Source: an uncultured virus (IMG/VR IMGVR_UViG_3300037507_003993) (taxonomy: Duplodnaviria > Heunggongvirae > Uroviricota > Caudoviricetes). Taken from it: 64,000 nt of DNA. The DNA lies in the IMG/VR virus record IMGVR_UViG_3300037507_003993; one strand, written 5' to 3'. Position 1 is the first letter of the stretch, and every line of letters begins with the position of its first letter. The notes beneath the pieces are model-generated. The model was not told the origin of the DNA. It saw only the letters and a program-made list of their open reading frames with translations, and ran no database searches. Both the position numbers and the translations under genes were made by a program. Positions 14,731 through 50,525 of the stretch are shown here, in pieces.

Positions 14731-17700
14731 CTATTTTCCTTTGCCTTTTGGACCAAGTTTAGTGCGTTTTACTGACTTTTCCTTAGCAATGCGCATGTCA
14801 AGAATTATTTCTTCCTCGCTGCGACGTGTCAAATAAGCAAATACTTCTTCCTTGGCAACCTGAAGCTCTTCTAAAATTATGTCGTCTTCGTCTCTGGCAA
14901 ACCTGCGCGCAAACCATTCAGCCACGTCCTTGCTAGTACTCCATGACATACCGAATTCTTCCGGGTCACCACTTGAGTACCCACGATACACGGTGAATTT
15001 GTTGGGAAGTTTGCCAAGCTCCGCTCGCTCGTCATCGTTCATGAAGAAATCACGGGAGCCACGATTGCTCTGGAGAAGCTCAAGCCATCTGTCAGATTCC
15101 GTTCCGATGCTTTCACTATCAACCCAGATGCTTGAAAGATTTTCCCAATATTGCTCATCTGTCATTTCGTCCATCACGTCTTCGAAAGCTTGTATTCTGT
15201 AAGCCCTTTCATGAAGGTATATATACTTGCTCCAATTTTTATCTTTATATGCTTCTTCTGTTCCTTTGCGTTTTGCATCAATACCATTGTTTAGGTAGTC
15301 AATCATGTTTGGCGCAACTGGACCAATCCAGAAAAGGAGAGGATGTTTTATCGCTTTCCCAAATAGGTCATCGTCAACCATGTAGTCTTTGAGCTCATCA
15401 TCAAGGTCGTCAAGACTCTTCCAGGTGCTCGGGTCTCCAAACGGATTTTTGGAATTCATTGCTCCGGTTATGGTTCCTTTTCTATTGAACTTTGCCTGCG
15501 CGCTCTTCATGAAGTCCATTGGAATACCGTATTCCCAAGCAAACTTTCGTCCAATTGGGTCGGTTGCAGTAACTCCAACTGCAGACATTTCGGTAAATGC
15601 TTGTTCTAGTTTTTTGACAATTGCATCACCAAGTACGCCTTCTGCGTATTCCGTGATTTCGTTGTCGTTTAGTGTCCCGATTTTCTCATCATCAAAGGGC
15701 CATACTGCCGACAAACTGCTTTTTTCACGGTAAGCCCAAGTAGCAAAAATATGATTAGTGCGCATATTTTTAAGTCCATCTACCAGTTCTTTGTCTGATA
15801 TTCCGTCTCGCAAATAAGACGAGATAAGTTTTCTAAACGGAGTTGATTCTTTTGCATACTTGAACATTGTGGTTAGCTGTTCGTTGGATTTAGCAACTTC
15901 GGCCAGAATGCCAGATGATTTATAGCGGGTCAGGTCAGGAGCTGGGTCGCCAACAGACATTGGCGGCACACCATCAATTGGTATGAGAGGCCTATCACTT
16001 CGGCCTCGGCCCGGGATTGGCATATCGTCTTCGTCTGTGGGCGAGTCATCCCAAAATGATTTGTAGTAATCTTCCTCGGCATCACGGATGTCCTCATCCG
16101 TATACAATGGGTCCTCGGTAATGTCGTCTTCTTGATAGATTGGGCGAGGTGGGCCATCTGGCTCACGTGGAGACCTTGGGCGGAATGGACTGTCCCAGCT
16201 ATACGCCGTGCCAGGCGCGCCCACTACATTCTCTTCTGTCAAGGTTTTGAAAATACTTGACTTTCGTATTTTAAGTTCTTTGGCAATTTCTGAAACAGTA
16301 GCTCCTCTTTTAAACATTTTGTGAGCGTCATACACCCAGGATGACGGAAATTCCAAATCTCTACGATTAGGGAACAAACTCAAGTCAGGCCTATCCACCA
16401 ATGGATGGTCACCGTAATCTTCGAAGAAGTCTGCATGCGCAAATGCGCGCGGGTCCAAAATTTCAAGTGTTTTTCCCTTTTCTTTTTGGGCCAGCAATAC
16501 TTTTTTATTTCCGTCCCAACCCCATAAGTAAAATTCGTCCGACTTTTGGGCAACTTCTGGAATTATATAGAAATTTCTGGCCATGGTGGCGCTGATTATG
16601 TGTCTGGGAAGTTTTCTGGGGTCGGTCAACTGCCTCATGTCGATACGTTCTTGAAGAAATTCTTCCGGCGCAACAACATAATGCGCAGTTATTTCGTAGC
16701 CTGCCGCCTTGGCGTAATCCAGGGTTCCATATCCCCTGTTGTATTGGCCCGTAGAGTCATAAACAACATCTTTGTCCCTATCTAAAGCAACTCGAAGCGC
16801 CATATCGGAAATAACTCTCGATTCCTCGTGGGCAACTGTTCCCCACTCGGTGTCTCCGGCGGCGTGCGCAGCTACGGCCTCTGGGATTACGGTTTTAATT
16901 TCGTCAGCGTCAACGTGAACTGCGGAATCGACATCGGGGATTCCAGCTTCTCCTGATTTCCTCATTGTTGATTTTCCACTACCAGGAGCTCCACCGACAG
17001 AAATGAATCGCTTTGGCTCCCCCGGCTTGCGGTTCTTTTTTACAGCTTCAGACATTCCGACGGCAACTTTTGTATATAGGTCAAAGAAACGTTCGTCTGT
17101 TACTTTTGTTGTTCCCTGTCCGAATGTGTTTGGTACTTCGATTCCTTCGTTTCGTTTTTCTGGTCGGTGATTTCGCATCGAGTCCCATAGATTTGGGTCG
17201 TGCTTAATTGATGGGGGAACATATCCAATTCTGTCACTGAGAGTTTTGTCGATTGGGGGCAGGGCAGCGCCACTTCGTGGATTTGGATAGGGCGGTCTTG
17301 GCGGAGCCTGTCTGGTTGGTCTTGTTTCCGATGGCTCTTCTTGAGGTGCTTGATTATCTCTTTGCGAAGTGAATCCGAATGGAAAATCAGGGCGCTGATT
17401 TCCCTGGTTTTGATTCTGTTGCGCACGACGCTCTATTTCTGGGTAGAAATTATTATCGTAGTCACTTCTCTGTCGAGCATCTGAGAGAATCTCCCATGCC
17501 TCACTTGCCGCCCTAAATCGCGCTGCGGCAGAAACATCACCTTTGTTTCTATCCGGGTGATATTTTTTTGCTAAGTCTCTAAACTTCTTTTTTAGAACAG
17601 CCAGGGAGTCATTTTTATCTGCCTCTAAATCTTTATAAAAGTCTCTTCCCGACCACTGTTTCCTGGGAATCGCCATCCGGCCCACAACGGACACATCAAA

Positions 17701-27380: not shown

Positions 27381-29789
27381 TCATACGCCCGATAATGGAT
27401 TTTCGTCGTCTGTTCGCCGTCCCAGTAACCGTCGCATATTTTCTACTATTTCCATACGTTGCCTATCTCTCTCCTCCTGAATCATTTCCTCTGTGAACTC
27501 TTTTTCCGGGAAAAAAGAAAGCTTGAGTTCCTTGGGGCTCAAGTTTTCATTACCAGGATAAGACAAAACAATCTCCATCATTTCCACCAGCCCTCTCCTC
27601 TTGTTTGCGTCCAGGTCGTCAGCGAGGCTTCGACGTAGAAAGTTTGGATTTGAATTCAGCGTGCGCTTTAGGTATCCAGGCTGGTTTCTTTTGAGGTATT
27701 CCTCGAACCATGTCGACGTAATTGGCGCCAAATTATCGATGCTCTGTGGATTGCTAACCGACATGTACTCAATAAGTTCTTTTCTCAACGCTTCAACCGT
27801 TGGTGCTTGGTACATGGGGAGGTCTGGGGAATTAATCAACGCATTCATCTGATTTCGGATGTACTCCAAAACATCTTCTTGCGAGAAGTTGTCTATTTTT
27901 TCGTGTTCAGGCAAGGGGATAAATGGTTTATCTGCCGGGTTGTAACCAAACCCCTCCGCAAATGCTTCATATAGCCGAGTTATTCTTTTGTTGAATTCCG
28001 CTATAAGCTTTTCTCTGTCATCATTGTAGAACAGGCGTACGCCAACTTCATTTCCATTTGCGCCACGCATCGTTGAGAACGGGTTTCTCAGCCATGACTC
28101 GAATCTCGTCCAGTATTCCCTCGGGTTTACGGTTGGAGCAAAATGCCCGAGAAGGTCACGAGCTTGCTCCCCAGCCGCAGAATCCGGGTTGTCGGCAGTT
28201 AGTGAATGAGTAAAAAGTGTTCCATACTGGTCCCTAAATCCCGGATAGCCGTTCTTGCCAATTGCGGGGGTCCAGTGCACACCGAGATTTGAGATTAGGT
28301 CAAGGTTGTCCTTTAGTACTTCACCCAATCCCTTTTTACTGGAAGATGAGTGTTTCCGCCCTGGTGAAATAAGCTTGCCGAAATTTGCAAATCCGGATGT
28401 TATCGACCCCGACCAAATTTTTTCAATTATATCCCTTCTGGAATTATCGTTTTTCCAATCGAATGTGAGGTCTCCTCGGGAATCGTCGCCAATCACGTTC
28501 CTTTCATCCCTGCCGTTCCAGAGGATGCGGAATTGAGTATTCGTAGCTGGATTAAATTCGCGCGGAGAACCCTTAAACACGGTTGGCTGCAAGGAAATAC
28601 CAGCCATTCTTCCAGCAACGCCATCAGAATCTTTAAAACGAGACCTTGGTGTGTATTTGCTCGGGTTTGCCCAGTATTCGTCGTTGCCTACGCGCACTCC
28701 ATTGGACTTTAGGGTCTCTACTAGATGCCGCACGGAATTAAAAGAATCTCGTAACTCGTGTATCTGAAGCGACCGTCCTATTTTAAACAAACGCTGTTGA
28801 TTTATGTTCCCGTTAGGTTTTTGGTCTGGTCTTGGATTTGGAATCCACCACCCGGTTCTCATGTTCCATCCAAGGCTTTCCATGTAGGCGGAAGCTGCAT
28901 CTCGAATCGATGCAAGATAACTCTGGTTTTGTTTAAGCCTTTCAAGTGGCTCGCCGCTGACGTCGTACATAAATCCGTACGGTCCAGAGCCTTTGTCTAT
29001 TGGGAATGTCCACCAGTCGTAATGCTCAATGTGGAAATTTTTCCAATCGTCATTCTGCTTCCAGCGCAAAAATTTTTGCGTTTGGTTTGCCTGCTCTTCA
29101 ATCAGTTTTTCGTCACCGATGTACGGTGTTTCATTTCTGAGCGGGCCCGACCCCATTGCTCCGCTAATTGTTACTTTTTTCCCAGACTTAGGACCAGTTG
29201 AAGCGTAGGCTCTGAATTTATTTCCATTGTAAGAAGTTTTTATATCCCTGGTTCCCGGTCTGTTCCAGTAGTGAACCCGGCCGCGCAGTTGCATTGCCGT
29301 GATTCTGTCTTCAATTTCTACTTCCAGAGAGTCGATTCCTCCAGTAGCCAATCTCATCACGTGGTTTTCCATATCCGAAAGAAACTTTCGCCGTTTTTGA
29401 CCTAGAGACTCTTCTGGGGTTATTGGTTTTATTGCACTAGCGGCAGTTGCGACTGGTTTTTTTATTGGGTTATATGGCAAATCATCTTCACCCGTAAGGG
29501 GGTTCGTCCATTTCCCATCGCCGTCACCATCTCGTGAAACTTTTTGGAATTTTCTTCTTGCAGCCCTACCTATTGAGCCCAATCTGCGGCCGACCCGTGG
29601 CACTCCCTTTCCGGAAATACCGCCGACATTAACCCCTGTTATTCCACCACCAGGGCTTGCATCTATTCTGACAACGCCACGTTCCCCCAAATTTTCCCAT
29701 CCGTCACGATGTTCTCCAGCAGAACGCTTACGTGTGCGTTTTTTCTTTTTAGAGAAAAGCTCAGGGACCAACTCTTCTTCATTTTTCAT
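27381..29789 (-). CDS. 802-aa multidomain protein with central OGFr-N-like domain
   Basis: HYDWWTFP and NQQRLFKIGRSL resemble the H..IQW.FP and N.LRITRI..SL motifs of OGFr-like domains. Confidence 0.7.
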   Translation of the reverse strand: MKNEEELVPELFSKKKKRTRKRSAGEHRDGWENLGERGVVRIDASPGGGITGVNVGGISGKGVPRVGRRLGSIGRAARRKFQKVSRDGDGDGKWTNPLTGEDDLPYNPIKKPVATAASAIKPITPEESLGQKRRKFLSDMENHVMRLATGGIDSLEVEIEDRITAMQLRGRVHYWNRPGTRDIKTSYNGNKFRAYASTGPKSGKKVTISGAMGSGPLRNETPYIGDEKLIEEQANQTQKFLRWKQNDDWKNFHIEHYDWWTFPIDKGSGPYGFMYDVSGEPLERLKQNQSYLASIRDAASAYMESLGWNMRTGWWIPNPRPDQKPNGNINQQRLFKIGRSLQIHELRDSFNSVRHLVETLKSNGVRVGNDEYWANPSKYTPRSRFKDSDGVAGRMAGISLQPTVFKGSPREFNPATNTQFRILWNGRDERNVIGDDSRGDLTFDWKNDNSRRDIIEKIWSGSITSGFANFGKLISPGRKHSSSSKKGLGEVLKDNLDLISNLGVHWTPAIGKNGYPGFRDQYGTLFTHSLTADNPDSAAGEQARDLLGHFAPTVNPREYWTRFESWLRNPFSTMRGANGNEVGVRLFYNDDREKLIAEFNKRITRLYEAFAEGFGYNPADKPFIPLPEHEKIDNFSQEDVLEYIRNQMNALINSPDLPMYQAPTVEALRKELIEYMSVSNPQSIDNLAPITSTWFEEYLKRNQPGYLKRTLNSNPNFLRRSLADDLDANKRRGLVEMMEIVLSYPGNENLSPKELKLSFFPEKEFTEEMIQEERDRQRMEIVENMRRLLGRRTDDENPLSGV

Positions 29790-36555: not shown

Positions 36556-38603
36556 CTAATCGATAAGCCAATCAGTTTCTTGAAATTTCCAGATGATGAT
36601 TTAAGTATGTTGACACGCTGTTCAAATATTTTTTCGACAATTCCAAGATGTAGTAATTCTGCTTCAGAAAGCTGTCCATCTATTGAGAGCATTTGTCTAA
36701 ATCGCTTAAAATCAAATTCTCCTGCTTGTTCGAGCAGCTTATCAAACAGCATTAACGCCCTCTTGCGCTGCTGGGCCTGAAGTTTTTCAAAATATTCAGC
36801 GTATATTCTCTGCTGCTTCTTCTTGAAGAAATCGTTTACTTGCATTTGTCGTCTTCCGCGTATTTCCGTCGAGGTCATACCCGAGAGACCAGCACTTCCA
36901 TTCAAAGAAGCAACTGCACGCATTCTGCCACCGACGCGTATTGGCGCAATCGTGGAAGGGTTTCTATCCCTGGTATCGGTGAGATAGTCGGACATTAGAA
37001 TTCCGACAACGTCCTCCGAGGGGAGGTCAGCAATGTCCATTGTCCTATCTTGAACGCCAAACATTTCTGCATCCTGAGCTTCTCCAAGCATATAGTTGCG
37101 CTTTTTTCCAGCACCAGCCAAACGAACCTTTGGCGCAATAAGACCCATTGAGCGCTGTAGTTCTGATGCCAGTGCGGCACCCAGATGTTCAAAGTTCTCA
37201 TCAGGTGTTATTTCAAACACCGTTTGTCCATCGGCACGCTCGTGAATCAATACACCATTTCGTATTTTTCCAGTCTTGTACATTGCGCTACGACTGACAG
37301 CCTCCGACCGAACATTCGATGAAATATTCTCAATCGAACCACCATTATTAAGGTGACGGACCGCAGAAGCAAGGTCTTTAATTTTATCGTCTTCGGGAAT
37401 TGCTTCTAGCTCTGTAGAGCGAGCGGACTGCTTTGACTTCTTTTTCTTTCGGTAGAAAGTCTCATAATGCCACCTGCGCATTGTTCGCTTGCCAGCACCT
37501 GCTGGGAGGTTGACTTTAATGACTTCATTCGGGTTTTTCATTCCTTTAAATTCTTCTTCATAAGATATTCCATCGCCCATTTCCTCTGCGATGAATTTTA
37601 ATTTTTGAACCGGGTCATCATTGGCGCGCAGCTTCTCCGCCGTGGCCACAGTTCTACCAAGCTTGCGTCGTTCTCCAACTGTTAGCGGACGAGCTTTCCC
37701 GATGGAAACAGTTGAACCTCCAGATAGGACATAGGATATTTTTTCAATGCCGGTATTTGAAAGCATTCCAAGTTCTTCTCCACCAATTGAATCTGACGTC
37801 AAAGCATTCATCAGGAATGTTGCGCCTTCCATATCCCTGTTGTCGGGGATTGTCCTAAGAACTGCAGGAGAAACTACCGGCTCCAAGATGAAGCCGTCGC
37901 GCCGCACCATTCTCATGTAGGCTTCATTTACCTGCGACATCTGTCCGACTATGTCATCGACGGAGCGATTTCTGCGCTGTCTGTTAGCACCAGTAACTTT
38001 TGGAATTTGTGGCGCGCGCGACTGGATTACGTCACCAGCCACAGACACTGGCTTAACACGTGTGCCACCGACATCCTGGAAGGATGGGCTACGACGAGAG
38101 CCACGCAAAACAGAGGCGATTGTTGCGCCTATGATTCCAGGAAGGTCGAATAGTTGTTTTCCACATGTAGAAAAACGCGAGTCCGTAAATCTTCCACCGA
38201 ATTGATACCCTTCTGGGCATCTGTATCCACGCTCTGGCTTGAGTGCGCCAAATCCACCAGGAACTCCTCGACCACCACCCGGGGTGAGAGCTGAGTAAAT
38301 TCGTGACCTAACAGGACTTCGCACGTTGGAAAAGTTTCCAGGAGTAACGGCAGAACCAAGTCCCTGGAGAGTTTGAAGAATTCTGCTGTCCGAGCCAGTA
38401 GCTCCGACTTTTACTTCGTAAGCACTTTTTACTCCTCTGCGCTGCATTGCGCATTTGAAATCAATAATTGATTTTCTTTCGTTGACAGAATAAATTGGCG
38501 CTGTAAAAAGGTTAGTTCTAGATAGTGCGAAAGACGGAGAAATATGTCTAACTTTTACAATCTCCTGGGACGGGCAGCAATCAGAACTCAATATTGTTCG
38601 CAT
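36552..38603 (-). CDS. 683-aa protein with RCP...C motif and C-terminal HipA/PI3K-like (probably degenerate) kinase fold
   Basis: LASELQRSMGLIAPKV...DYLTDTRDRNPST. Confidence 0.65.
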   Translation of the reverse strand: MRTILSSDCCPSQEIVKVRHISPSFALSRTNLFTAPIYSVNERKSIIDFKCAMQRRGVKSAYEVKVGATGSDSRILQTLQGLGSAVTPGNFSNVRSPVRSRIYSALTPGGGRGVPGGFGALKPERGYRCPEGYQFGGRFTDSRFSTCGKQLFDLPGIIGATIASVLRGSRRSPSFQDVGGTRVKPVSVAGDVIQSRAPQIPKVTGANRQRRNRSVDDIVGQMSQVNEAYMRMVRRDGFILEPVVSPAVLRTIPDNRDMEGATFLMNALTSDSIGGEELGMLSNTGIEKISYVLSGGSTVSIGKARPLTVGERRKLGRTVATAEKLRANDDPVQKLKFIAEEMGDGISYEEEFKGMKNPNEVIKVNLPAGAGKRTMRRWHYETFYRKKKKSKQSARSTELEAIPEDDKIKDLASAVRHLNNGGSIENISSNVRSEAVSRSAMYKTGKIRNGVLIHERADGQTVFEITPDENFEHLGAALASELQRSMGLIAPKVRLAGAGKKRNYMLGEAQDAEMFGVQDRTMDIADLPSEDVVGILMSDYLTDTRDRNPSTIAPIRVGGRMRAVASLNGSAGLSGMTSTEIRGRRQMQVNDFFKKKQQRIYAEYFEKLQAQQRKRALMLFDKLLEQAGEFDFKRFRQMLSIDGQLSEAELLHLGIVEKIFEQRVNILKSSSGNFKKLIGLSIR

Positions 38604-39240
38604 CTAGCGACTCCAATTCGTTTTTATCGATAACATACCCATCGACGTGTTCCCAGTTTTTTTCGTCTTCCACGTACTTAACGAAGTCCGGTTCCATGTC
38701 TATGAAATCTTGTAAGACTTTCACTGCATGGGTCCAATCATCCTGCGTGATGACTGGGGAAAAGGGCTCATCAACCGAGCGTATACCTGTAAATTCTACA
38801 GCCTTCCTGCCACTGCGTGATGTCAGTTTGCGCATTCTATTGTTGAATTCCTGGTCAGAGTAGAGTGAGCCACGAACAACCCCGCGCATCTTCTTGCGAC
38901 AGTTTTTCATTCCTGGGTGGTGGCACCCTTCATTTGGCCACAGACCAGTTGTTTCGTGATGCAACCAGGCGCATATTCTTTCAAGTGGGTAAAGCTCTGG
39001 GTGGTCGGCAAGAATTACTCGGCATCTCCTGAACCCGCCAGGCTTGCGCATAATTGGTCTCCAGTAACGAAGGAGGCGCTCAAGATTGCCCCTGCGCGGT
39101 CCATACCCTCTGAGTACATCACCGGTAATATTTTCTTGAGGTATTATGGCGCCAGCAGGTCCTGCTGCTTTTGTGTCGACGGCAATTTGGACATCGCCAT
39201 TCATAATTTTGTTGACCAGACTCATTTGGTCTCCTTGCAA
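38581..39240 (-). CDS. hypothetical head-locus protein with Cys/His motifs
   Basis: LLRYW...PGGFRRC...CAWLHHETTGLWP; true start may be MSLVNK. Confidence 0.7.
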   Translation of the reverse strand: MQGDQMSLVNKIMNGDVQIAVDTKAAGPAGAIIPQENITGDVLRGYGPRRGNLERLLRYWRPIMRKPGGFRRCRVILADHPELYPLERICAWLHHETTGLWPNEGCHHPGMKNCRKKMRGVVRGSLYSDQEFNNRMRKLTSRSGRKAVEFTGIRSVDEPFSPVITQDDWTHAVKVLQDFIDMEPDFVKYVEDEKNWEHVDGYVIDKNELESLDANNIEF

Positions 39241-39297
39241 CCAGTGAATAAACCCCTGAATTTAATTGTACGCAAAATACTGTGATTTAAATACATG

Positions 39298-39642
39298 TCA
39301 ACTAGATTTCCGAAATTCTGGCCTGCGGACTGGCTGAATTTCCTCTAGCTGGTCGTAAAAGTCTAAAGCTTTTTTGTTGTAGGGGTTCTTTGATGTTTTT
39401 CCAGGGTTTTCCGTGTTGTGCCTAGTGGACCAGTCGCTATCCCTGAAGTCTAGCTTCCAGAAACGTTTCTGTCTGTTGGTCTTCATAACTGGGAAGATGT
39501 CATTACGTCGTTCAATAAAAGAAAACAGCGGAACTGGGGATAATCTCTTGCCGTCAACAAACAGGCCGTTATACCTGTCGCCATCTGGAACAAAATAGAG
39601 ATTCCCAGTTTTTCCGACTTTGGCGATTAGGTACTTTTTCAC
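39298..39642 (-). CDS. hypothetical protein
   Basis: 114-aa ORF overlapping upstream stop. Confidence 0.6.
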   Translation of the reverse strand: MKKYLIAKVGKTGNLYFVPDGDRYNGLFVDGKRLSPVPLFSFIERRNDIFPVMKTNRQKRFWKLDFRDSDWSTRHNTENPGKTSKNPYNKKALDFYDQLEEIQPVRRPEFRKSS

Positions 39643-42600
39643 TTTTCATTCCTGCCGTCTGTGAGTTTATCAAACTCTTCCTGTATCTTTTCCAGTCTGC
39701 TTCTGGAGTCAGAAATATTTTTAATGTTTTTGAACTTTGCCTGACGCATTGACTCAACAAGTTCTTCTATCTGCTTGTCTATTTTTGCCTCAATAACTTC
39801 TTTTGATGTTTTTGACTTGGGAGCCTTACTTGAGAATGAGCGCCCATCAAATACGTCCAATCCGTAGTCATTGGTTACTGCAAGATTAAAACCTCTTGCT
39901 TTCGCTAATCTCTGAAGTCTTTCGGCTTCTTCAATTCTTCTTAGATTTCTAAAGTCGTCTGATATTTTCCTGTATTCGTTAACGTTGTCAATTCGTATGG
40001 CTAAATTTTTGGGTATCGCATTAATTGGCTCCACCCCAGACAAAATATCTTCGATTATTTTTTGCTCTTCTTTTGTGGCCGCAAAACTCCGTTTCATTTT
40101 TTCTTGAATTTTAGAAATTTCTTCGTCTGTCATGTTGTTGTCAGGGTCACCTGGCGGCGGCGGCGGTGGTGCTCCTGCGCCGGAGGAAGCAATCGCAGGG
40201 CCTTCGTCTACATACTCCGTAACGGGTAAGTACTTAAGTTCTCTTGGTTTTTTTGCAAATTCTTCCGGCGTAGTTGAGTTTGTAATATCTAGAGAATTAA
40301 ACGGAACCCTCACCTCTTCGATGTCGCCCGGCTCTATTCCACCCATAATCAGGGCGTCCCTATTTCCCCATGCTCCGCTTATCTGGGGACGAGTTTGACC
40401 ATTATCTTTTCTGTAGGCATTGAAATCATTTTTAAACTTACCATAGAGAAGTTCGATGGAATTTGATTCACGTTCGTCAAATCTTCCGTTAGGGTCAATG
40501 AGTGCGCGACCTATTTCGTCAGAATCTGTTGAGTTTGCCAGGACGGGAAATATGTGATTATCAAGGGCGTCACCGTTGCCGTAAGCTGTCCTTTGGCCGG
40601 TTTCTGGTTTTAGAATTATTTCAGCATCACCAAAAATAGAATTGAAACCATTGTTGCGATTTTCGTTACTTGACTTAAAAAGGTCAAACTTATAACGTGG
40701 AGAATTGACATCAACTTTATTAGAAAACTCCCTAAATGAAGCCTCTTGTTCAGCGAAGTCGCCATCGGAATGCACCATGTATCCAGTTATTGGGCGTTCT
40801 GCGTCGGGAAGGTCTGGGGAAATTCCAATGTCTGCTTCGTAGGCTTTTACTCTCTCTGACAGACGTCGCGGTTTGCCTGAATCGTCTCTTCGTAGCCCAT
40901 TTTCCATTAGGCTCGAAAGTTCTGCAGTGTTTACGTTTATACGTGGTCTCTGGTCGATGCCAGCATGAAATTCAACTGCTGCCTGACGAAGGTCTGCCAG
41001 AATCTCGCGGTCTTCGGTATTGCGCATGTAGTTAGCAAATTCTGGGTCAAGTCCATTCATTGCAGACATGTATTTTGCGTCGCCATCGCCAGACTCTATG
41101 AATCCTTTGATGTCTTTGATTATTTCTTGTCTTTTCGCAATTCGTGATGGTTCGCTTTGCTCGAGAGTTTCCGGTCTCCATAATTTGCTGTTTGGTACCG
41201 AGCTATAGAACTCACGAGACTGTCTTCTGCCAAACTGTGGAGCAGAGCGCAAAGCAGGTGATGACGACATCTTTCCCGACACTCCATCACCTAAGTACTT
41301 TGCAAGCTCGGACTCCCATTCTTTTACATCTGAGTCAAAATCGTCTTGTGTTTTTTTGACGTACGCACTTCGCTTGGCTCTATCCAGAGCGTCTTTTGAC
41401 CAATTCTTTTCAATTGCACCATCAATCAAAAGACGCATTGATTCCGCTGTTGCTTCAGCGTCTTTGTCTGCTCTATGATGCTCTTTGCCAAGAGGGACCC
41501 CGAGGTATCTTGTTATGTCCGCAAGTCCATTGGATGGTGATTTTGTTCCATCTTTATTTGTCTTATGTGGTCCATCCGGATTTTCATCTGTGTACCTTGG
41601 GAGTGTCATGCCGGCCATATCTTTGAGGTCAATCCAGCCCCTTGCTTGCCATTCAATTCCCGCTTCACGGAGAGTGTCTTCAAGTACGTTCTTGTCGTAT
41701 GCGGCGTTTTGAACACCCATAATTGCATTCGGTCCAGCAAATTCAACAAGTTTTTTGTGCCCAGACTCCAAAGACTCAGCCCCCTGTAGGTATTGGTCAG
41801 TGAGGGGGTTTCCGTCTGCGTCGCGCAAGTTGTCTTTAGACCATTGCTGCAGAGGCTTTCCCGGATTGACAAATGTGTTGAATCTGTCTATTACTTGTCC
41901 GTTTTTCACTTTTATTGCGCCTATTTCTACCGGATTTCCGTTTTCCGTAGCGCGACCATATTTGTCGAATACTAAACCAGTTGTTTCATAATCAAGAAAG
42001 ACTATTTCCTGGTCATTATATCTCTGTTTAAATTCTTCCCAAGAATTAACTCCAGCAAAAATATTTTCTGTTTCACCGAGCATCGGACCGTAGGTTGGCG
42101 TCCGTGGGTACTGAGGCACACCGTCTTTGTTTTTCTTGATTCTGCTCTGTCCTGCTTGTGGGGTCGAGCCGCTTCTCATAAAGCCGGTGATTGGGGCTGG
42201 TTTCGCATCGCTCCAGAAGTTTGAATCACCAAGTCTTTGGCGATGGTTTTTGCTCATTCCGGCCACCCAACTAGGCGGAAGCGTCACTTCAGCGCTACCA
42301 CCACTTCCAGCCTGGCGAATCAAATACTGCTCGACCTGTCCGCTTGGGATGTTTGCGTGCAATCCCGATTGGGTTCTCAGCTGCCTGGCTATTTTGCCGA
42401 CTGCTAAATCCTGTGCGTCAGTTGAAGACTCTGCTGATTCTGCTTTAAAAATCTTTGTTGCACCCATTTCGTTTAGCTGCTGACGAACAGCCTCTTCTGT
42501 TGCTTCTTTGTCTGGTGTACCAGTGAGTCTTCGGAAGCTTCCTGATTTGAGCTTTATCCCCTCACCAGGTTTTGGTGTAAGAACAGTATCAAGCGTATAT

Positions 42601-45600
42601 AGATTGTCGAGTGAATCTGGATTGTCTCTTAGCACCTGAGACAGTGGCGCTATTAAGATAGTCGTATCTTTTTCTGAGCGCTGCCTAAATATATGTCCAC
42701 CAACAAGGTGATTTAATGCGAAGTGAATCGTATGGCGAGGAACCCTCACCTTCTTTCCGGATTCAGTTGTTTCCTCAAAGTTAGAACGAGGAGAGATGCT
42801 TATGTCTCCATTTTCATCAATTTCTGGCTCGTAACTTGTTTCATGTACAACATACAAGTCATCTAGGCTCAAATCTTCAAGACCAGCTCGGGTTATTGTT
42901 CTTTCCTGGTATTCATCAAGTTCGATGGGTTCATACAATTTTCCTTCTGCTTCAGAGACTCGCTTGCTTCCTTTTTCCGCTAAACCATCGAATTCCTTTG
43001 CTGCCTCCGTGTCACCGCGTGATGCTCGATACAGAAGGGCGTCGACATCATTCGAATCCATGTCTCCTTTGCCTAGATGGGCATTGAGCCACTTCTCTGA
43101 ATATTCGCGACCTTCCTTACTGGTTCTGGATTTTCCGGTTATCTCAAATGGATTTTTAGGAATAATTTTTATTGATGAGTCATCGATTGATATTGCGTCA
43201 GGATTATCAAATACTATTTTTTCGCCGTTTATTTCGTGGACCTTGATGTTGACATCACCAGACCTGCTGCCATCGAAACGATTCCTAACACCCGTGACCG
43301 TTGTTGGCACCAGCGGGGACATTCTCCCAACGATTGGTGTAGATGATTGCTGAGTTCCCAATGCTGATTGCAGCATTCCCGGCAGCGATTGACGCTCTTC
43401 GGTGAATGGCCTGTTTGTGTTTATTGAACTTATCGTGTCTTGATTTTTCCAGTCGCGAGAAGAAGTGGTTCTCCGCTGTAATGAGGATGACCTCATAGCT
43501 CCAGTAACAGCCGAGGAACTCCTATTCCTATTGCTTCGTGGATAGTTTTGGTCCACAGCTCTTCTGACGGCCTGCGTTTTAAGTGTTGGCCTTTGTTGTG
43601 GCAATCCAGAACCAGCCATGCGACCACTAATATTCCATGCGTTTCCGGGAACACTAAAAACATTCTGTCCAATGTCGTCCATCTGGGAACGGTATTGTGC
43701 CTGCGTCTGTGTGGCTCCCTGGGCTGCGGCCATTGTTCGCGCGAACTCATCAACCGTAGATGGGATTCCTGTTTGCCCACCTGTTAGTACCGGGTCTCCA
43801 AACAGTCTTCGGGATGCGAAGAACTCTGCGCGGGCTTCTATGTTTGATGTTGCCGCATAAACACCACCAGAAAACTGTCTCATCAACTCCTGGTCGTCAG
43901 CATCATCGGTGATGTTGTTTTCAATTGCCTCAGCTAGCGCATTGTGAAAATTGTTTAAATCGGTCTCCAGGTCTTGCCTTGTGTACCCGGTCGAACCTCC
44001 CCAACTTCCAGAGCGAAGATATTGCCTTCTGCTTAGATTGTTTGCTGAGTCGATTAACAGCTGAATACTTCTGTTTCCTGTTGGATTCGCAGCTTGCCTA
44101 AAGTCAATCATCCATGCATTGACTTGTTTCTGTCTTTGCCACTGGGGACCACCCTGCTGTGGTTTTACAAGTGTTTGCGCAAGCGGGTACCTCTGAAGAT
44201 TTTGCGTTTGGAATCCAAGTGTCTCCATGACATTAGAGAAGTGCGCAACATGACCCCACTCATGGTTGGCCAAATAGTGCATGTCACCCTCAACAGAATC
44301 AGCGACTCCATTTGCTCGACCATTTCTGTCAAAGCCCGAGCGATTTACCTGTGACCACATTTCCCATGGATTCATAACAAGGGAGAACTGAAGTCCACCC
44401 TGTTCTGCGGTTCTTCCCTGAGCCGCGTTTGATGCTGCTTGGCTTATTCTTCTTCCACCGGTGGAGGGAGAGGGAGCAAATGCATCAAATCTAACTTCGA
44501 ACGCTGACCCCATTTCCGTATCTATCGCGAAAGAGGTTACCCATTTTGCCTGCTCTGGATTTGCAATTGCATTTTCCATCCAGGAGTACCAGTATTGAAT
44601 CAAAGATGCCTTCAGTTTTGACCTTTCCATCCTGCTCAAGCTCATTGGAATTGCTTGGTCAAACATTTCTTCTATTTCTGCTTGTGGAACGTGTGGAAAT
44701 AGTTCGGCCATTGCGGAAACGAATTGAGCCTTTTGGCTTATGTCGCCGATTGGTCTACCGGCCGGGAAGTTCTGACTCGGTGGGAGTCTTAGTCCGTCTG
44801 GTCGGTTTGGGTTGTTGATTCTATCCCGCAAGTCGCGAGCAAGTTCGGTGGCTCTTCTGCCTCTCCAGACTTGTTCTTTCAATCCAAGTTGCCACACATT
44901 ATTGCCGACGCCCTTCGGTGCTCCACGCTGCTTGCCTCCAGTTCTAGCTGAAGGGTTTGGTATGAGACCAAACCTCGTAGCCCTCATGGCTCCCGAGACT
45001 GTATCGCTAACCATTTGTGGAGTGGGCGCAATTCTGCCACCGTACCCCATTGCTTCTTGAACTCTTTCAAAACCAAGTTCTCTAATTTGTTCAGCGTTTG
45101 CTCTAGCTACATCGAATCCACTAGCAACTCTTCCGCCAACCTGGGTTGACATCTGGGTGGCGCCAGCTGTTGCTCTACGCACTGCACGAGCTCCACTTTG
45201 TGCGGCAGTTCTTGGTGACGGTATGAAGCAGTTAGAGCCAGTTATGTCTGTAAATTGGTTTGCAGCTGGTGTTCCCGGAGGGCAGCGAAGCTTGTTTTTA
45301 TCGTCAACCCATAAGCCTCTTGTTTTGGCTGCTCTTCGCAGCAGCGAGTCAAGGCTGTCCTTTAGTTTCCTTCCAAGGACCTTGTACTCGATGTCATCCA
45401 GTTCACCCGATTTAAATTTCGTCGGAGAGGAATGTTTGTGTGTTGACCTAAAAAATGTTGAATCTGTATCCAGCATATTTGGGTTGAAAGTGCAAAAATG
45501 CATTCTCTTCCCTGGTGGAACAAGCGGTATTACATCGCCTGGTTCCCATGTTTTTATATATTCCTCATACGGGTTGGAATATTTTACTGGAGGCTTATTT

Positions 45601-45716
45601 ACTTCTGGTTTTTCGGCCTTGGTCTCTATTTTGGGAATGAAACCTATTTCTAATTCGCCATTCTTGGACAGGTTGTTTATCCTGCGTTCTGCGAAATTGG
45701 AATATGAATTAGCCAC
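39639..45716 (-). CDS. giant multidomain protein, 2025 aa: HExxH metallopeptidase, DEDDh (DnaQ-like) exonuclease, C-terminal DUF3626/ART-like domain
   Basis: HEWGH + EARAEFF; LDYETTG/QNAAYD/HRADKDA; FGDAEIILKP...RTAYGNGD...IMGG...DIEEV; AGGAG SD. Confidence 0.85.
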   Translation of the reverse strand: MANSYSNFAERRINNLSKNGELEIGFIPKIETKAEKPEVNKPPVKYSNPYEEYIKTWEPGDVIPLVPPGKRMHFCTFNPNMLDTDSTFFRSTHKHSSPTKFKSGELDDIEYKVLGRKLKDSLDSLLRRAAKTRGLWVDDKNKLRCPPGTPAANQFTDITGSNCFIPSPRTAAQSGARAVRRATAGATQMSTQVGGRVASGFDVARANAEQIRELGFERVQEAMGYGGRIAPTPQMVSDTVSGAMRATRFGLIPNPSARTGGKQRGAPKGVGNNVWQLGLKEQVWRGRRATELARDLRDRINNPNRPDGLRLPPSQNFPAGRPIGDISQKAQFVSAMAELFPHVPQAEIEEMFDQAIPMSLSRMERSKLKASLIQYWYSWMENAIANPEQAKWVTSFAIDTEMGSAFEVRFDAFAPSPSTGGRRISQAASNAAQGRTAEQGGLQFSLVMNPWEMWSQVNRSGFDRNGRANGVADSVEGDMHYLANHEWGHVAHFSNVMETLGFQTQNLQRYPLAQTLVKPQQGGPQWQRQKQVNAWMIDFRQAANPTGNRSIQLLIDSANNLSRRQYLRSGSWGGSTGYTRQDLETDLNNFHNALAEAIENNITDDADDQELMRQFSGGVYAATSNIEARAEFFASRRLFGDPVLTGGQTGIPSTVDEFARTMAAAQGATQTQAQYRSQMDDIGQNVFSVPGNAWNISGRMAGSGLPQQRPTLKTQAVRRAVDQNYPRSNRNRSSSAVTGAMRSSSLQRRTTSSRDWKNQDTISSINTNRPFTEERQSLPGMLQSALGTQQSSTPIVGRMSPLVPTTVTGVRNRFDGSRSGDVNIKVHEINGEKIVFDNPDAISIDDSSIKIIPKNPFEITGKSRTSKEGREYSEKWLNAHLGKGDMDSNDVDALLYRASRGDTEAAKEFDGLAEKGSKRVSEAEGKLYEPIELDEYQERTITRAGLEDLSLDDLYVVHETSYEPEIDENGDISISPRSNFEETTESGKKVRVPRHTIHFALNHLVGGHIFRQRSEKDTTILIAPLSQVLRDNPDSLDNLYTLDTVLTPKPGEGIKLKSGSFRRLTGTPDKEATEEAVRQQLNEMGATKIFKAESAESSTDAQDLAVGKIARQLRTQSGLHANIPSGQVEQYLIRQAGSGGSAEVTLPPSWVAGMSKNHRQRLGDSNFWSDAKPAPITGFMRSGSTPQAGQSRIKKNKDGVPQYPRTPTYGPMLGETENIFAGVNSWEEFKQRYNDQEIVFLDYETTGLVFDKYGRATENGNPVEIGAIKVKNGQVIDRFNTFVNPGKPLQQWSKDNLRDADGNPLTDQYLQGAESLESGHKKLVEFAGPNAIMGVQNAAYDKNVLEDTLREAGIEWQARGWIDLKDMAGMTLPRYTDENPDGPHKTNKDGTKSPSNGLADITRYLGVPLGKEHHRADKDAEATAESMRLLIDGAIEKNWSKDALDRAKRSAYVKKTQDDFDSDVKEWESELAKYLGDGVSGKMSSSPALRSAPQFGRRQSREFYSSVPNSKLWRPETLEQSEPSRIAKRQEIIKDIKGFIESGDGDAKYMSAMNGLDPEFANYMRNTEDREILADLRQAAVEFHAGIDQRPRINVNTAELSSLMENGLRRDDSGKPRRLSERVKAYEADIGISPDLPDAERPITGYMVHSDGDFAEQEASFREFSNKVDVNSPRYKFDLFKSSNENRNNGFNSIFGDAEIILKPETGQRTAYGNGDALDNHIFPVLANSTDSDEIGRALIDPNGRFDERESNSIELLYGKFKNDFNAYRKDNGQTRPQISGAWGNRDALIMGGIEPGDIEEVRVPFNSLDITNSTTPEEFAKKPRELKYLPVTEYVDEGPAIASSGAGAPPPPPPGDPDNNMTDEEISKIQEKMKRSFAATKEEQKIIEDILSGVEPINAIPKNLAIRIDNVNEYRKISDDFRNLRRIEEAERLQRLAKARGFNLAVTNDYGLDVFDGRSFSSKAPKSKTSKEVIEAKIDKQIEELVESMRQAKFKNIKNISDSRSRLEKIQEEFDKLTDGRNEK

Positions 45717-45786
45717 TTGTTGCTCCTAGGCGGCAAACAGATACCGCAATCACCTAACGAAGTTATGGAACAACAACCATATTAGC

Positions 45787-47298: not shown

Positions 47299-47666
47299 GC
47301 TTGGTGCTCCTTGTACTGCATTGAATTGGAAATACAACCTTGTACGTTACTACAGCCAGCGCATGGATTCATGCGCTTTTCTCCGGTAACCATGCAGTTG
47401 TATTTACTTAAAATCCGTTGATTATGTATAGGTTTAGCATAACCCATAGAAGAGGATTCACGGCTGACGTTTGGTCTCCGCTTGCTAACAGTGAAGCGAG
47501 ATGACTTCTTTTTTGCAATTCGAGGAGCAATCGAATTTTCCTGTTTTTTGCTAAGTTCCAAAAAGTCGTCGATTGCATCATTATATTTATTGACAGACTT
47601 CATGTCGTGATTCACTATGGCGCTGTCGCGCAATCGAGCAAGGTGACTTAAAAAATCTGAAGCCAT
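47295..47666 (-). CDS. hypothetical protein with C-terminal four-Cys motif
   Basis: CMVTG...CAGC...C. Confidence 0.65.
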   Translation of the reverse strand: MASDFLSHLARLRDSAIVNHDMKSVNKYNDAIDDFLELSKKQENSIAPRIAKKKSSRFTVSKRRPNVSRESSSMGYAKPIHNQRILSKYNCMVTGEKRMNPCAGCSNVQGCISNSMQYKEHQA

Positions 47667-47669
47667 GAA

Positions 47670-50525
47670 TTATCTCTTCGAGAAAATTCTGTCCATTTCG
47701 ATGTCTTCAATATTGCTATCCACATACGACGCATATATCGCGCGAGAAATAGCCTCAATCGAGTCATCATTCAATTCATGCGCTCCGAATACGTTAATTC
47801 CATTTTCGGCACGAGAAATATGTACGCCGTGGTATTCAGCAACAGTGTCAACCGCTTGTTTTACTTGCGATATGAGCTGAGGCTCAACCTTGATGAGAAT
47901 GGAATCATGAATCGTGCTTTGCAGAGCAGTTTTGACGGAAATGTCATTGCCTTCCGAAACTGAAACATATACAGAAGAGAGTGACTTTCTCCTATTTCTA
48001 AGCTGATTGGCAGCGGTTCTCATTCTTTCTGCCGCTAGTTCTTGTCTTATTGCCCGTCTGGCTTGAGCCACTGTCATTTCGTTTACTTCAGCCACCCTTT
48101 GAATTGCCCGTTCTTTGGCTCTTTCTGGGGCTCCAGAAGGGCTGTTTGGGTCATTTTCCATATCTCTCAACATGCTCAAAACCGTTCTTCTTCTGGTTCC
48201 CCTGGAAGACAGCGGTCCGCCTACTTTCATGGCGGGCTCTATTAATCTGTTTATGGTTGCTGCAATCTTTTCTGCTTCTTCATTGGTGACTCCGTTGTTG
48301 AGCGCAAGTCGAGTTAGCTCAGCGTCCATTTCTCTGCCGAGTTCCAAATCTTTCTTGGTCTGTTTTTTGGACACAGGGCCTTTTCTTGCGGAAATTCTTT
48401 CTTGAGCCGTGGCCATTAGTGTCGATATTTTGGCAGATGTTCGTTTTCTTTCTTGAGCCATATGGCGCTGTTCGGCTCGACGGATGTCAATTCTTTCTAC
48501 GCCGTATTTTTTTGCTACATCCTCAAGGGATGCTCCAGTCATTCTTTCTTTGTATATGGCTGCGTCAAATTTGCCGTTTCTCACATCGTTTGCCTTACCC
48601 ATGCGACCTGTGATGGTTGCAGGAACACCGGGTCTTTCCGGAACCCTCGTTGGGACCGACGGAGCGGGGGCTGGTGCGGGAGCCGGCTGTGGTGCTGGTG
48701 CTGGTCGAGGGATTTCATTTGGCTTAGGGATTCTGAGTGGTTTTTCTTCTCGTTCTGGAACTTCTTGAGGAACGGTTCGTGGTGGCATCATCTTTGGTGC
48801 CTTTGGCTTCTTGTATGGAACATTATCCCTACCATCGCGCCCAGTTCTGAATCCGTCACCATCTCCATCGAACTCTGATGGATTAACCATTCTCCTTGCC
48901 GAACGGCCAATACCACGAGCGCTGCGCGCGGCTCTTGCAATGGCCTTTTGTTCAACGTTCTCAATTGCTGTTATCACAGCATTTCGCGCGTCTTTTTCGT
49001 ACCAATCGATGTTTGGAACAACAAATCCATCGGCGAGTAGCTCGACGTCAAAACCGTGATACTCAGAAACGTTATTCGCTACTTCGTACATCTCCATGTT
49101 TTCTGTCTTGATGAAAAGATGGACACCCGGGTTGTTGTTCTTGAACTCTTCCCAACTTGAAAATGGGTCGGACTTTCCACCGCACGCTCCACCACATCCG
49201 CACCCTCCCGGCTTCGGCGCAGCGAGCATGTTCGGACTTTTTGGTATTGGTGCTCCAGATGTTTCTCCGTTTGAATCAACTGGAAGATAAATTGTTTCGA
49301 CTCTAACCTTTTGGGCTGGGCCAAACATGAAATCTGACTCATTTGGTGTGTGGTACGCAGCGCGCATTGTCTCAACCATTCCGTCTTTCATGAGGTCAAA
49401 CACAACGTTGTTGCTGTCTGCTTCGCGGACGGCGACTTCACCACCAAAGTGAGTTGAAATTGCTTTTGCGATTGAACCCATTCTTCCCATTGTTGGATTT
49501 TCGGATGGGTTCGCGATGGAATAGATTGAAATATTTTTTTCTTCCATCTCAACCTCACTTGACTTCTTCTTTGAATTCTCATAACGCTCAAGCATGCGAC
49601 GTCCTTTCGCTGCGAGTTTTGCTGCATCAGAAGCATCCTGTGGTACCGGCTCACCCCATGCGGCTGCAGAAAGCGCAAGGCGTGTTGGGCGACCCTTTTC
49701 ATCCTTCATTGGCCCAGATGGATTAGTGAAGAAGCGAGTTAGGAAAGAACCTTTTCTGCGCATTTTTTCTGGCGTATTTGCTGCTCCCTTAACTCCTGGC
49801 TTCAGATTTGCCCCTTCGGTGCGCTTGAAGTGTGCGCGACCAGCAGCAGTAAGGCCGCCCTTTGGGTCCCTGAGCTTTTCTCCTTTTTCCTCAATGGGAA
49901 CACAGTTTGGAACCATATTTCCATTCTTGCCCCTCTTCATCCCAACCTGCTTGTAGCCATCCCAACAAGGTCCGCCCTTGACTTCTTCGTTTTGCTTATC
50001 TGACTTGATTGAAATTGTTCCTGTGAGCTGATTTGCTCCATGCAATACAGGGCTGACTTCGTATAGTTCAACTTCTTTGAGCATGTTGGCTTGCTTTGTT
50101 GTGTCGAATACTGCGTCCAAAGTCTTGTACCCAATTGACCACTCTTGCTCTTCACCAAAAAATTTTACGTTTGCGAATGCTTCGCGACCACGTTCTGAAG
50201 CAAGGTTGAACTGTACTTTGGCAAACAAACCACCAATACCATTGGCTTTCATCTTCGCTGGAAGACGTGGGTCGTTTGGTCCAACTTCGTAAATTTCAAG
50301 AACTTTTCCAATTGGTTCGTTCCAGTTGTGGCCCCATACAACGCGAGGCTTGCGTCGTCCAAGAGAGCCATTGAAGCAACCAGGTAGGCATATGTCCCCT
50401 ACGCTGTCCTTATTGCCAATGCCCGCAACAAAACACTCAACTATTCCCTTTGATTCAATCGTGTTGATTTGCCCAGGAATCGCTTTGTATTGAGTTTCAG
50501 TAAAGTCATTGGCAATATTGCTCAT
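47670..50525 (-). CDS. HK97-family prohead protease with ~770-aa C-terminal extension
   Basis: GNKDSVGD, VWGHNW...PIG, WSIGY, LYEVSPVLHGAN; directly follows portal; start at MSNIAN. Confidence 0.88.
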   Translation of the reverse strand: MSNIANDFTETQYKAIPGQINTIESKGIVECFVAGIGNKDSVGDICLPGCFNGSLGRRKPRVVWGHNWNEPIGKVLEIYEVGPNDPRLPAKMKANGIGGLFAKVQFNLASERGREAFANVKFFGEEQEWSIGYKTLDAVFDTTKQANMLKEVELYEVSPVLHGANQLTGTISIKSDKQNEEVKGGPCWDGYKQVGMKRGKNGNMVPNCVPIEEKGEKLRDPKGGLTAAGRAHFKRTEGANLKPGVKGAANTPEKMRRKGSFLTRFFTNPSGPMKDEKGRPTRLALSAAAWGEPVPQDASDAAKLAAKGRRMLERYENSKKKSSEVEMEEKNISIYSIANPSENPTMGRMGSIAKAISTHFGGEVAVREADSNNVVFDLMKDGMVETMRAAYHTPNESDFMFGPAQKVRVETIYLPVDSNGETSGAPIPKSPNMLAAPKPGGCGCGGACGGKSDPFSSWEEFKNNNPGVHLFIKTENMEMYEVANNVSEYHGFDVELLADGFVVPNIDWYEKDARNAVITAIENVEQKAIARAARSARGIGRSARRMVNPSEFDGDGDGFRTGRDGRDNVPYKKPKAPKMMPPRTVPQEVPEREEKPLRIPKPNEIPRPAPAPQPAPAPAPAPSVPTRVPERPGVPATITGRMGKANDVRNGKFDAAIYKERMTGASLEDVAKKYGVERIDIRRAEQRHMAQERKRTSAKISTLMATAQERISARKGPVSKKQTKKDLELGREMDAELTRLALNNGVTNEEAEKIAATINRLIEPAMKVGGPLSSRGTRRRTVLSMLRDMENDPNSPSGAPERAKERAIQRVAEVNEMTVAQARRAIRQELAAERMRTAANQLRNRRKSLSSVYVSVSEGNDISVKTALQSTIHDSILIKVEPQLISQVKQAVDTVAEYHGVHISRAENGINVFGAHELNDDSIEAISRAIYASYVDSNIEDIEMDRIFSKR

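Follow-up and report, generated by a model that had tools for sequence, protein, structure and literature searches.

Do the giant proteins encoded in the head locus of an uncultured tailed phage act as single chains, or are they polyproteins that are divided into separate products? The question is raised by IMG/VR record IMGVR_UViG_3300037507_003993, of which a 64,000-nucleotide stretch of phage DNA (the window) was analyzed. Its head block lies on the minus strand and runs from a portal protein with a Mu F-like domain through a Peptidase_S78 prohead protease and ten open reading frames (ORFs) of 114 to 4175 aa to the major capsid protein; five of the ten genes between the protease and capsid genes encode large multi-domain proteins of 683 to 4175 aa. 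A preliminary description of this DNA had noted that these proteins share a five-residue motif, [IV]-[TSAV]-G-x-M, and had proposed that the motif marks protease sites in polyproteins that are packaged in the head. We conclude that the motif probably marks cleavage sites in polyproteins, on the evidence set out below.

A short motif is enriched in six head-block proteins

A regular-expression (regex) search of the 45 translated ORFs of the window recovered 20 strict copies of the motif in six head-block proteins (10,772 aa; the protease ORF and the five large proteins), all between the S78 protease and the capsid protein, and 0 copies in the remaining 39 ORFs. When each of the six proteins was shuffled 2000 times, the mean was 0.53 copies (standard deviation 0.73, maximum 5). 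The enrichment was thus borne out, as were the earlier estimate of fewer than one chance copy and the statement that other window proteins have no strict copy. All 19 copies listed in the preliminary description were recovered at their coordinates, together with a 20th that it had missed, ITGYM at aa 1643 of the 2025-aa protein (40776-40790).

Two complete relatives, read end to end, served as genome-wide controls. In G007 (160,282 bp), which has the same motif, the head locus holds 20 copies of [IV][TSAV]G.M in 12,024 residues, where shuffles predict 0.71, and all other ORFs hold 2 copies in 38,469 residues, with 2.03 expected. In G008 (158,714 bp, with terminal repeats), where the lineage motif is [LFM]SSG, three ORFs of more than 2000 aa hold 20 copies in 10,264 residues (0.55 expected), and all other ORFs hold 3 in 38,823 residues (2.40 expected). 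Outside the head block, both genomes encode homologous proteins of ~1640 aa (G007 44934-49877, which is L114:4934-9877 on the minus strand; G008 149410-154296), each with 2 copies of its own lineage's motif, one of them at ~aa 580 in a Gly/Ala/Ser-rich stretch. This copy count is within the genome-wide chance expectation, and no PHROG function was found for these proteins.

The Gly codons of the motif (GGA 9, GGC 7, GGT 3, GGG 1) are near the background of these genes, and its Ser residues are encoded by both TCN and AGY codons, which indicates conservation at the protein level, as had been deduced earlier from the use of all four Gly codons. Since the third base of codon 2 is variable, the motif does not form an AGGA-like ribosome-binding site. 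Internal translation starts at the motif Met were accordingly rejected: no Shine-Dalgarno-like or purine-rich bias was found upstream of the ATG, and sister lineages have motifs that lack Met. The flanks of the motif are dissimilar between sites, and all-against-all BLASTP of the head-locus proteins gave one 55-aa similarity in which the motif is not involved. We therefore regard the motif as a short linear motif rather than part of a repeated domain; the same BLASTP result rules out duplicated homologous linkers.

Motif copies lie in linkers between domains

The five large proteins are all encoded on the minus strand, and only two of these five chains match any Pfam family. Both of these hold two or more unrelated catalytic or DNA-binding domains. 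The 4175-aa polyvalent protein (14731..27258) matches NUDIX, an HTH/Sigma70_r4 array, two DnaJ domains and Zeta toxin in Pfam. Its joints are ITGKM (25366-25380), ITGFM (22510-22524), ITGRM (22048-22062), VSGSM (20818-20832), ISGAM (19411-19425), VVGRM (17674-17688) and ITGAM (15457-15471); it also contains VSGIM (19297-19311) and the relaxed variants IAGRI (18604-18618) and ISGQI (18577-18591). The 2025-aa polyvalent protein (39639..45716) consists of a conserved N-terminal module, the zincin signature HEWGH (an HExxH regex match at aa 485, 44250-44264), an unknown domain, a DEDDh exonuclease (Pfam RNase_T, aa 1239-1425, 41442-42002) and C-terminal domains. Its joints are VSGAM at aa 240 (44985..44999), ISGRM at aa 696 (43617..43631), VTGAM at aa 737 (43494..43508), IVGRM at aa 795 (43320..43334), ITGFM at aa 1176 just before the exonuclease (42177..42191) and VSGKM at aa 1479 (41268..41282). 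The remaining three chains have fewer copies: the 802-aa protein (27381..29789) has ISGAM at aa 208 (29154-29168) and VAGRM at aa 391 (28605-28619) as well as a DGDGDG module at aa ~60-112; the 683-aa protein (36552..38603) has IVGQM at aa 218 (37938-37952) and the variant VGGRM at aa 557 (36921-36935); and the 2126-aa protein (30175..36555) has a single ITGAM at aa 355 (35479-35493).

By Pfam and regex matches, two copies of the motif flank each of four regions (NUDIX domain, HTH array, exonuclease and HExxH region), and both DnaJ domains begin 12-13 residues past the Gly of a copy, in keeping with the arrangement first described. The domain labels themselves fared unevenly. NUDIX, the Sigma70_r4/HTH array, the RNase_T exonuclease and the two J-domains were recovered by Pfam, whereas for the metallopeptidase an HExxH signature was found, by regex only, in one of the six motif-bearing window proteins, with no match to a Pfam peptidase family. 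The OGFr-like and ART-like regions were not confirmed, giving no Pfam match at E<=0.5 and no significant match to a PDB sequence; for the two C-terminal fragments called ART-like, the PDB searches returned E 0.26 or weaker (243-aa fragment) and a spurious galectin.

The sequence surroundings of the motif are those of linkers. In the 30 residues flanking the 20 copies, bulky hydrophobic residues make up 0.205 of positions compared with 0.272 in the same proteins (Mann-Whitney p 8e-5), and Ser, Gly, Pro, Thr and Asn are enriched. We also built two AlphaFold2 models from homologue alignments, taking pLDDT<50 as the cut-off for low confidence. The first model covers the 2025-aa protein from aa 650 to 1500 (mean pLDDT 72), and all five copies in it fall in low-confidence segments, which total 173 of 851 residues; ITGFM lies in the segment at model residues 521-541, and the last helix of the exonuclease ends at residue 829, directly before VSGKM at 830-834. 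In the model of aa 1540-2700 of the 4175-aa protein (mean pLDDT 68), three copies are found in segments of this kind and a fourth is 2 residues beyond one, while VSGIM sits within a confident J-domain helix. Overall, 8 of the 10 modeled copies are in low-confidence segments, so the placement of the motifs in linkers that had been suggested from the sequence held up.

Two of the 20 copies are probably chance occurrences. VSGIM (19297-19311), the copy within the J-domain helix, is kept in one of 18 homologues, and ITGYM (40776..40790), a probable non-site, lies within a conserved block that reads ITGYM in the relative of 83% identity, and ITGYV and ISGHV in those of 58% and 35%.

Sites are conserved and bound modules that are gained or lost

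In relatives that are 83%, 58% and 35% identical to the 2025-aa protein, 7, 6 and 5 copies are retained, respectively, and the first joint, VSGAM, reads ISGAM, IAGSM and IVGAM. We aligned 22 homologues of the 2025-aa protein (down to 30% identity) and 18 of the 4175-aa protein (down to 24%) and found nine sites to be strict in 13-19 of the 18-22 homologues. In the 2025-aa protein these are ISGRM (19 of 22), VTGAM (19 of 22, in 12 spellings, the highest number for any site), IVGRM (17 of 22), ITGFM (15 of 22, plus 4 relaxed) and VSGKM (16 of 22, plus 3 relaxed); in the 4175-aa protein, the sites at aa 1579, 1733, 2143 and 2612 are strict in 18, 18, 13 and 14 of 18 homologues. The Gly and Met columns are 78-100% conserved compared with 31-56% for the flanks. 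In one linker the motif is shifted by 8 columns in two relatives, and thus the linker retains a copy rather than a position. Among the shorter chains, L017 has ISGAM and VVGRM at places matching the two copies of the 802-aa protein, IVGQM of the 683-aa protein is retained in relatives of 99% and 83% identity, and L035 reads VSGKM beside the same 'MRAV' context as VGGRM in the window.

The motif also coincides with the borders of modules. In three of four aligned homologue pairs, whole-module insertions or deletions of 407, 384 and 125 aa span exactly from one motif to the next, and the shorter protein has a single motif at the junction. In the fourth pair (the 4175-aa protein and a relative of 3911 aa), a J-domain cassette of 124 aa starts 3 residues past VVGRM and has a motif-free right border. 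One further difference among the aligned pairs, of 83 aa at a C-terminus, is without the motif. The 4175-aa protein ends in 226 aa that follow ITGAM and recur in an otherwise unrelated 2241-aa ORF of another phage, where they are preceded by DSGAM.

These results bear on the explanation that the motif is a functionless by-product, arising either from the composition of the linkers or from the common ancestry of duplicated ones. Linkers rich in Ser, Gly, Thr, Pro and Asn do raise the odds of words made of small residues, and the two copies that look like chance fit this explanation. However, the shuffles preserve composition and still yield 0.53 copies compared with 20, the flanks are non-homologous between sites while synonymous codons vary, Gly and Met are conserved within linkers that drift, and other lineages carry a different word at the same joints. 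The by-product explanation is nearly refuted by the shuffles, the conservation in homologues and the genome-wide control in G007, and we regard it as very improbable.

Related lineages carry other motifs at the same joints

We counted 43 giant homologues (1125-3239 aa) of the 2025-aa protein's exonuclease domain, and 142 stretches of the viral contig collection encode a relative. In 44 non-redundant related loci we searched de novo for over-represented five-letter patterns, counting a locus when a joint-type motif was among its top four patterns at Poisson p<=1e-6; the p-values are uncorrected for the number of patterns, and most are <1e-13. Such a motif was found in 33 loci, with the LSSG type in 24, IxGxM in 3, GLASST in 2, GMRS in 2, LASGR in 1 and SKSTT in 1. 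At least 5 of the 11 loci without one belong to the IxGxM lineage, in which the motif is degenerate and was missed by exact letters, and the rest are mostly short fragments. Immediately ahead of the exonuclease domain the joint, read from the sequences, is ITGFM, LSGSM, VSGKM, GLASST, RLASGR or LSSG depending on the lineage. The classes have in common an aliphatic or Met residue ahead of small residues, the third position being Gly or Ser; most copies of the SKSTT-lineage word (xGSKSTT) have [IVL]-x-G in front of them.

The preliminary description had considered a cut before Met. This detail found no support, the motifs of sister lineages (LSSG, LASGR, GLASST) being Met-less. By analogy with herpesvirus assemblin, the shared core of aliphatic residue, small residue and Gly or Ser would possibly put the scissile bond after Gly.

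Two further observations were made on these loci. P0012 and P0050, which are from the same contig, represent a lineage with the Leu- or Met-first spellings LSGKM, LTGRM and MTGKM, so that only 0 and 2 of their copies satisfy the strict regex. In two LSSG-lineage loci (L073, L079), giant proteins contain a run of 11-12 copies of a pentapeptide-like ANLxG repeat.

The prohead protease ORF carries the motif of its lineage

The prohead protease ORF (47670..50555, minus strand) is 961 aa as listed, with Met at aa 11 the likelier start, and matches Peptidase_S78 (aa 38-182) and DUF6321 (aa 229-300) in Pfam and head maturation protease in PHROG (E 1e-26). Its S78 (HK97-type) serine protease domain (50010..50444, minus strand; Pfam PF04586, E 2e-10) is the candidate enzyme. 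It is followed by DUF6321, a variant site, a ~70-aa domain, a Pro-rich linker, a strict site, a variable insert and a second copy of the ~70-aa domain. In an alignment of 10 protease ORFs, the variant site, TMGRM (aa 355-359, 49479..49493), lies ~55 residues past DUF6321, and the aligned relatives read NP-I-[STAN]-G-[RK]-M-G in this region, with ISGRM in L093, ITGKM in L035 and IAGRM in L014. The strict site, ITGRM (aa 648, 48600..48614), lies directly past the Pro-rich linker and is a candidate self-processing site; it aligns with VAGRM, ISGRM, VSGQM, VTGAM and VTGAM in five relatives, with ITGRT in L023, and is not retained in L014. At the sequence level, then, an N-terminal protease is joined to an extension with the motif or a variant of it (aa 648, aa 355), and this arrangement is kept in relatives.

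The same holds across motif classes. Of 15 ORFs that bear an S78 domain, 13 carry their own lineage's motif downstream of it: seven of eight in the IxGxM class, a GLASST ORF with 2 copies, a GMRS ORF with 15, and LSSG ORFs with 4, 5, 10 and 21. In five lineages, S78 forms the N-terminus of a single chain of 4740 aa (L029, G002), 3661 aa (L130, G005), 2947 aa (L131, G006), 3723 aa (L132, G009) or 3381 aa (L133, G008), and each of these chains holds 4-21 copies of its own lineage's joint motif.

The S78-led chains are relevant to the alternative that the motif is an uncut linear recognition signal, for example one used in docking, whether to target the chains to the capsid or to bind a chaperone (J-domains being present in the chains) or a modifying enzyme. 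The evidence presented here concerns conservation and position rather than cleavage, motifs in disordered linkers are commonly docking sites, and the Ser/Thr/Gly-rich classes resemble what is often seen at modification sites. On the other hand, one copy per joint, exact module borders, copies in the protease extension and S78-led chains are what a polyprotein needs and docking does not, and it is hard to imagine chains of 2,947-4,740 aa that include the maturation protease working uncut. We therefore consider an uncut signal improbable.

Several features of the protease ORF were noted in passing. In L023 (1796-4483; the same gene is in L007/G007), a protease ORF of 94-96% identity reads ITGRT past the Pro-rich linker, the Met being lost, and the ~100 residues that follow are swapped for a shorter sequence. 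The ~70-aa domain, which bears an EYHG signature, occurs at aa 470-544 (48923-49147) and aa 878-940 (47735-47923), one copy on either side of the strict motif; a hidden Markov model (HMM) of it matches the protease ORF only and no other head protein. An Arg-rich stretch followed by DGDGDG...TG..D..PY is found at aa ~536-587 of the protease ORF (48795-48950) and aa ~58-112 of the 802-aa protein (29454-29618); the two modules show 40% similarity over 55 aa and occur in only these 2 window proteins. Giant proteins of the LSSG lineage have a similar D-x-DGDGW...PVWVG module at aa ~75-90, just ahead of the first joint. The DGDGDG module is a possible targeting or anchoring signal. A capsid-targeting domain common to all giant proteins was considered and rejected, given that the HMM of the repeat is specific to the protease, the chain termini have no common sequence and DGDGDG is confined to 2 window proteins.

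The S78 protease and an embedded metallopeptidase are candidate enzymes

The reading of the motif as protease sites dividing polyproteins fits its location in linkers, its conservation relative to the flanks, the gain and loss of modules, the copies in protease ORFs and the lineage classes, and it is from these that we infer the cut. In the pathway that we propose, the giant chains would enter the procapsid along with the protease, and the S78 (HK97/assemblin-type) prohead protease would then cut its own C-terminal extension and the motif-bearing disordered linkers. This would yield ~25 pieces that would remain in the head and reach the host with the DNA, among them exonuclease, NUDIX, HTH/sigma-like, J-domain and zeta-kinase modules. 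In favor of such delivery is where the genes lie, between those of the protease and the capsid protein and in a block whose portal has a Mu F domain.

Several observations weigh against this pathway. The portal and capsid proteins of the window have 0 motif copies, and the lineage-specific motif was not found in seven aligned capsid proteins from six motif classes (72-83% identical), so the capsid protein was rejected as a substrate carrying the motif. Two S78-bearing ORFs lack the motif, one in L023 (ITGRT) and one of 491 aa in L090, from the SKSTT lineage (none). For the 2126-aa and 683-aa proteins, sites are retained in close relatives only, with distant homologous ORFs having a copy elsewhere or none; ITGAM of the 2126-aa protein is kept in the 99% relative only, L014 has its copy elsewhere and the 2116-aa ORF of L035 has none. 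Protease domains of lineages with strongly different motifs share 71-78% identity with this S78 domain, and thus a change of specificity would rest on few residues. HExxH is present in at least one giant protein of every lineage examined, which makes an alternative enzyme available. Finally, no giant-protein homologue was found in the nearest cultured (Gordonia) phages, and no cultured relative in the phage collection carries these genes. Because the capsid and portal proteins are copy-free, S78 is similar across motif classes and HExxH occurs in every lineage, we hold it slightly more likely than not that the S78 prohead protease is the cutting enzyme, a good deal less firmly than we hold that the sites are cut. 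A predicted complex of the S78 domain with a 43-aa linker scored 0.00 in a run without controls.

The main rival to the S78 protease is the embedded zincin-like metallopeptidase (HEWGH in the window), with the motif again marking cleavage sites; the cut, by this enzyme or by a different protease of phage or host, would take place inside the head or once the proteins have been injected. A hydrophobic P1' residue is often preferred by zincins, and each motif class has one aliphatic or Met residue. The peptidase regions vary far more between lineages than S78 does, as might be expected of an enzyme that co-evolves with its sites, and the capsid protein is motif-free. Autoproteolytic release of domains by embedded metallopeptidases has been proposed in passages of PMC5512222. 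However, HExxH is found in only one of the six motif proteins of the window, and the peptidase would therefore need to act in trans, including on the protease ORF. In G005, the S78-led chain of 3661 aa carries 15 copies of GMRS and lacks HExxH, and the HExxH regions differ visibly in sequence type and position across lineages. Taking these points together, we think cutting by an enzyme other than the S78 protease unlikely, though a somewhat stronger contender than an uncut signal.

The proposed strategy combines features of known systems

The prohead proteases of T4, phiKZ and SPN3US (gp21; gp175/gp245) are of the T4 gp21 type. As with these, the phage described here has a prohead protease in its head block and a motif shared by several head-locus proteins and the protease; unlike these, its protease matches Pfam S78. 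According to excerpts of PMC10052503, head and ejection proteins are processed by T4-type prohead proteases at a shared AXE-type motif, at which the protease of SPN3US is processed too; for SPN3US gp245, 14 cuts after AXE have been mapped in nine proteins, 13 of which remove N-terminal propeptides. In contrast to such propeptide cuts, up to 7 internal joints per chain would be cut here, between folded modules, and the motif is aliphatic-small-Gly-x-Met rather than Ala-x-Glu. A further difference, which counts with the objections above, is that the capsid protein of T4/phiKZ types is cut at the same consensus, whereas the capsid and portal proteins here are motif-free. Cargo of the T4/phiKZ type is thought to enter the host (excerpts of PMC10052503, PMC5694885 and PMC7411985).

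Polyvalent proteins have been likened to polyproteins, with processing proposed, by Iyer, Burroughs, Anand, de Souza and Aravind (2017; PMC5512222, in excerpt). The giant proteins described here resemble them in having many unrelated enzymatic and DNA-binding domains, in being encoded next to virion genes and predicted to travel with the DNA, and in the zincin signature of one chain. The linker motif is not described in the excerpted text of that paper, in which the word 'linker' occurs 0 times. There, embedded metallopeptidases are the processing enzymes and assemblin-like peptidases are C-terminal; here we favor S78, which is N-terminal in the chain or in an upstream gene, both in the window and in five lineages.

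Closer in the arrangement of protease and sites is herpesvirus assemblin, whose precursor with the scaffold has release and maturation sites of consensus (V/L/I)-X-A|S. We take the S78 protease to be in the same broad fold class. In both, a serine protease lies upstream of an extension with aliphatic-x-tiny sites; the motif here does not match the assemblin consensus itself, having Gly rather than Ala and then x-Met, and the putative substrates are thousands of residues of enzyme modules instead of a scaffold. Like eukaryotic RNA virus polyproteins, the chains have a protease within or leading a long chain with a repeated, lineage-specific motif; unlike them, they belong to a double-stranded DNA (dsDNA) tailed phage, would carry packaged accessory enzymes rather than replication machinery, and show no homology.

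The preliminary description knew of no shared cleavage code of this form. This stands insofar as neither the motif nor inter-domain joints in S78 phages were found in the literature searched, which lay outside subscription journals, and a search for S78 cleavage specificity gave no usable consensus; it needs amending in that the T4-type AXE motif (PMC10052503, in excerpt) is a shared code. Giant polyproteins go unmentioned in the portions of two freshwater actinophage papers covered by a term search (PMC6802176, PMC10914622).

Head-cargo processing by prohead proteases and polyvalent proteins are thus each known, and the locus described here would combine them. What is unusual is the internal joints, the exchange of cassettes at joints and the variation of the code from one related lineage to another. 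That these phages are a large uncultured dsDNA clade with a true polyprotein strategy, in which a few giant chains have fixed joints, a joint code rewritten by lineage and cassettes bounded by that code, is a proposition on which we find the balance even. If the reading is right, each genome devotes up to ~10,800 residues to accessory enzymes, led in some lineages by the capsid-maturation protease, and protease and substrates co-evolve like a lock with dozens of keys, the code having changed several times among related phages with dozens of sites changing along with it. Cargo processing of the T4 and phiKZ type would then also be carried out by HK97-type (S78) proteases and would include internal cuts between domains. 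If the chains are cut, the motif would serve as a sequence-readable map of the mature products of otherwise unannotatable giant proteins and as a rule for locating module borders in thousands of metagenomic phage proteins. A short portable cut site with a small cognate protease would also be useful for loading proteins into, and releasing them from, phage capsids.

Probable host and neighboring genes

At the start of the head block, the 762-aa portal protein (50610..52898, minus strand) matches Pfam Phage_portal (E 5e-51) and, in its C-terminal Mu F-like domain, Phage_Mu_F (E 8e-11), as well as portal in PHROG. The large terminase gene (53152-54456) is divergent to the block, and primase/helicase and ribonucleotide reductase genes lie outside it. 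A WhiB-like regulator is encoded at 788-1183, and because of this gene the host is probably an actinobacterium; for the whole clade of related phages, the hosts are probably freshwater actinobacteria. The tie between WhiB and actinobacterial hosts is drawn in excerpts of PMC6802176 and PMC10914622.

The nearest relative record, G001, is without the protease. By capsid protein and protease, the nearest cultured phages are Gordonia phages, with 48-49% capsid identity. In one of these, ChisanaKitsune, 17 of the 18 coding sequences examined are without the motif and a single copy is found in the tape measure. Between its portal and protease genes (L015 8339-13304), an RNA ligase, a VIP2-like ADP-ribosyltransferase and a 970-aa HNH protein are encoded by separate genes, which may be an unfused counterpart of the cargo block.

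A 516-aa ORF follows the protease (45787-47337); it is conserved across lineages, never with the motif, and its aa 402-470 match the C-terminal part of a Gordonia phage capsid maturation protease gene (61% over 69 aa). At the other end of the block, the 446-aa major capsid protein (13045..14385, minus strand) matches major head protein in PHROG (E 2.5e-66). Its aa 1-103 (14077-14385) resemble a delta or scaffold-like region of helical type, which ends at aa ~100 with [KR]-[ST]-I-G-x-x-F (KTIGQMF in the window), a conserved sequence that stays constant whatever the motif of the lineage.

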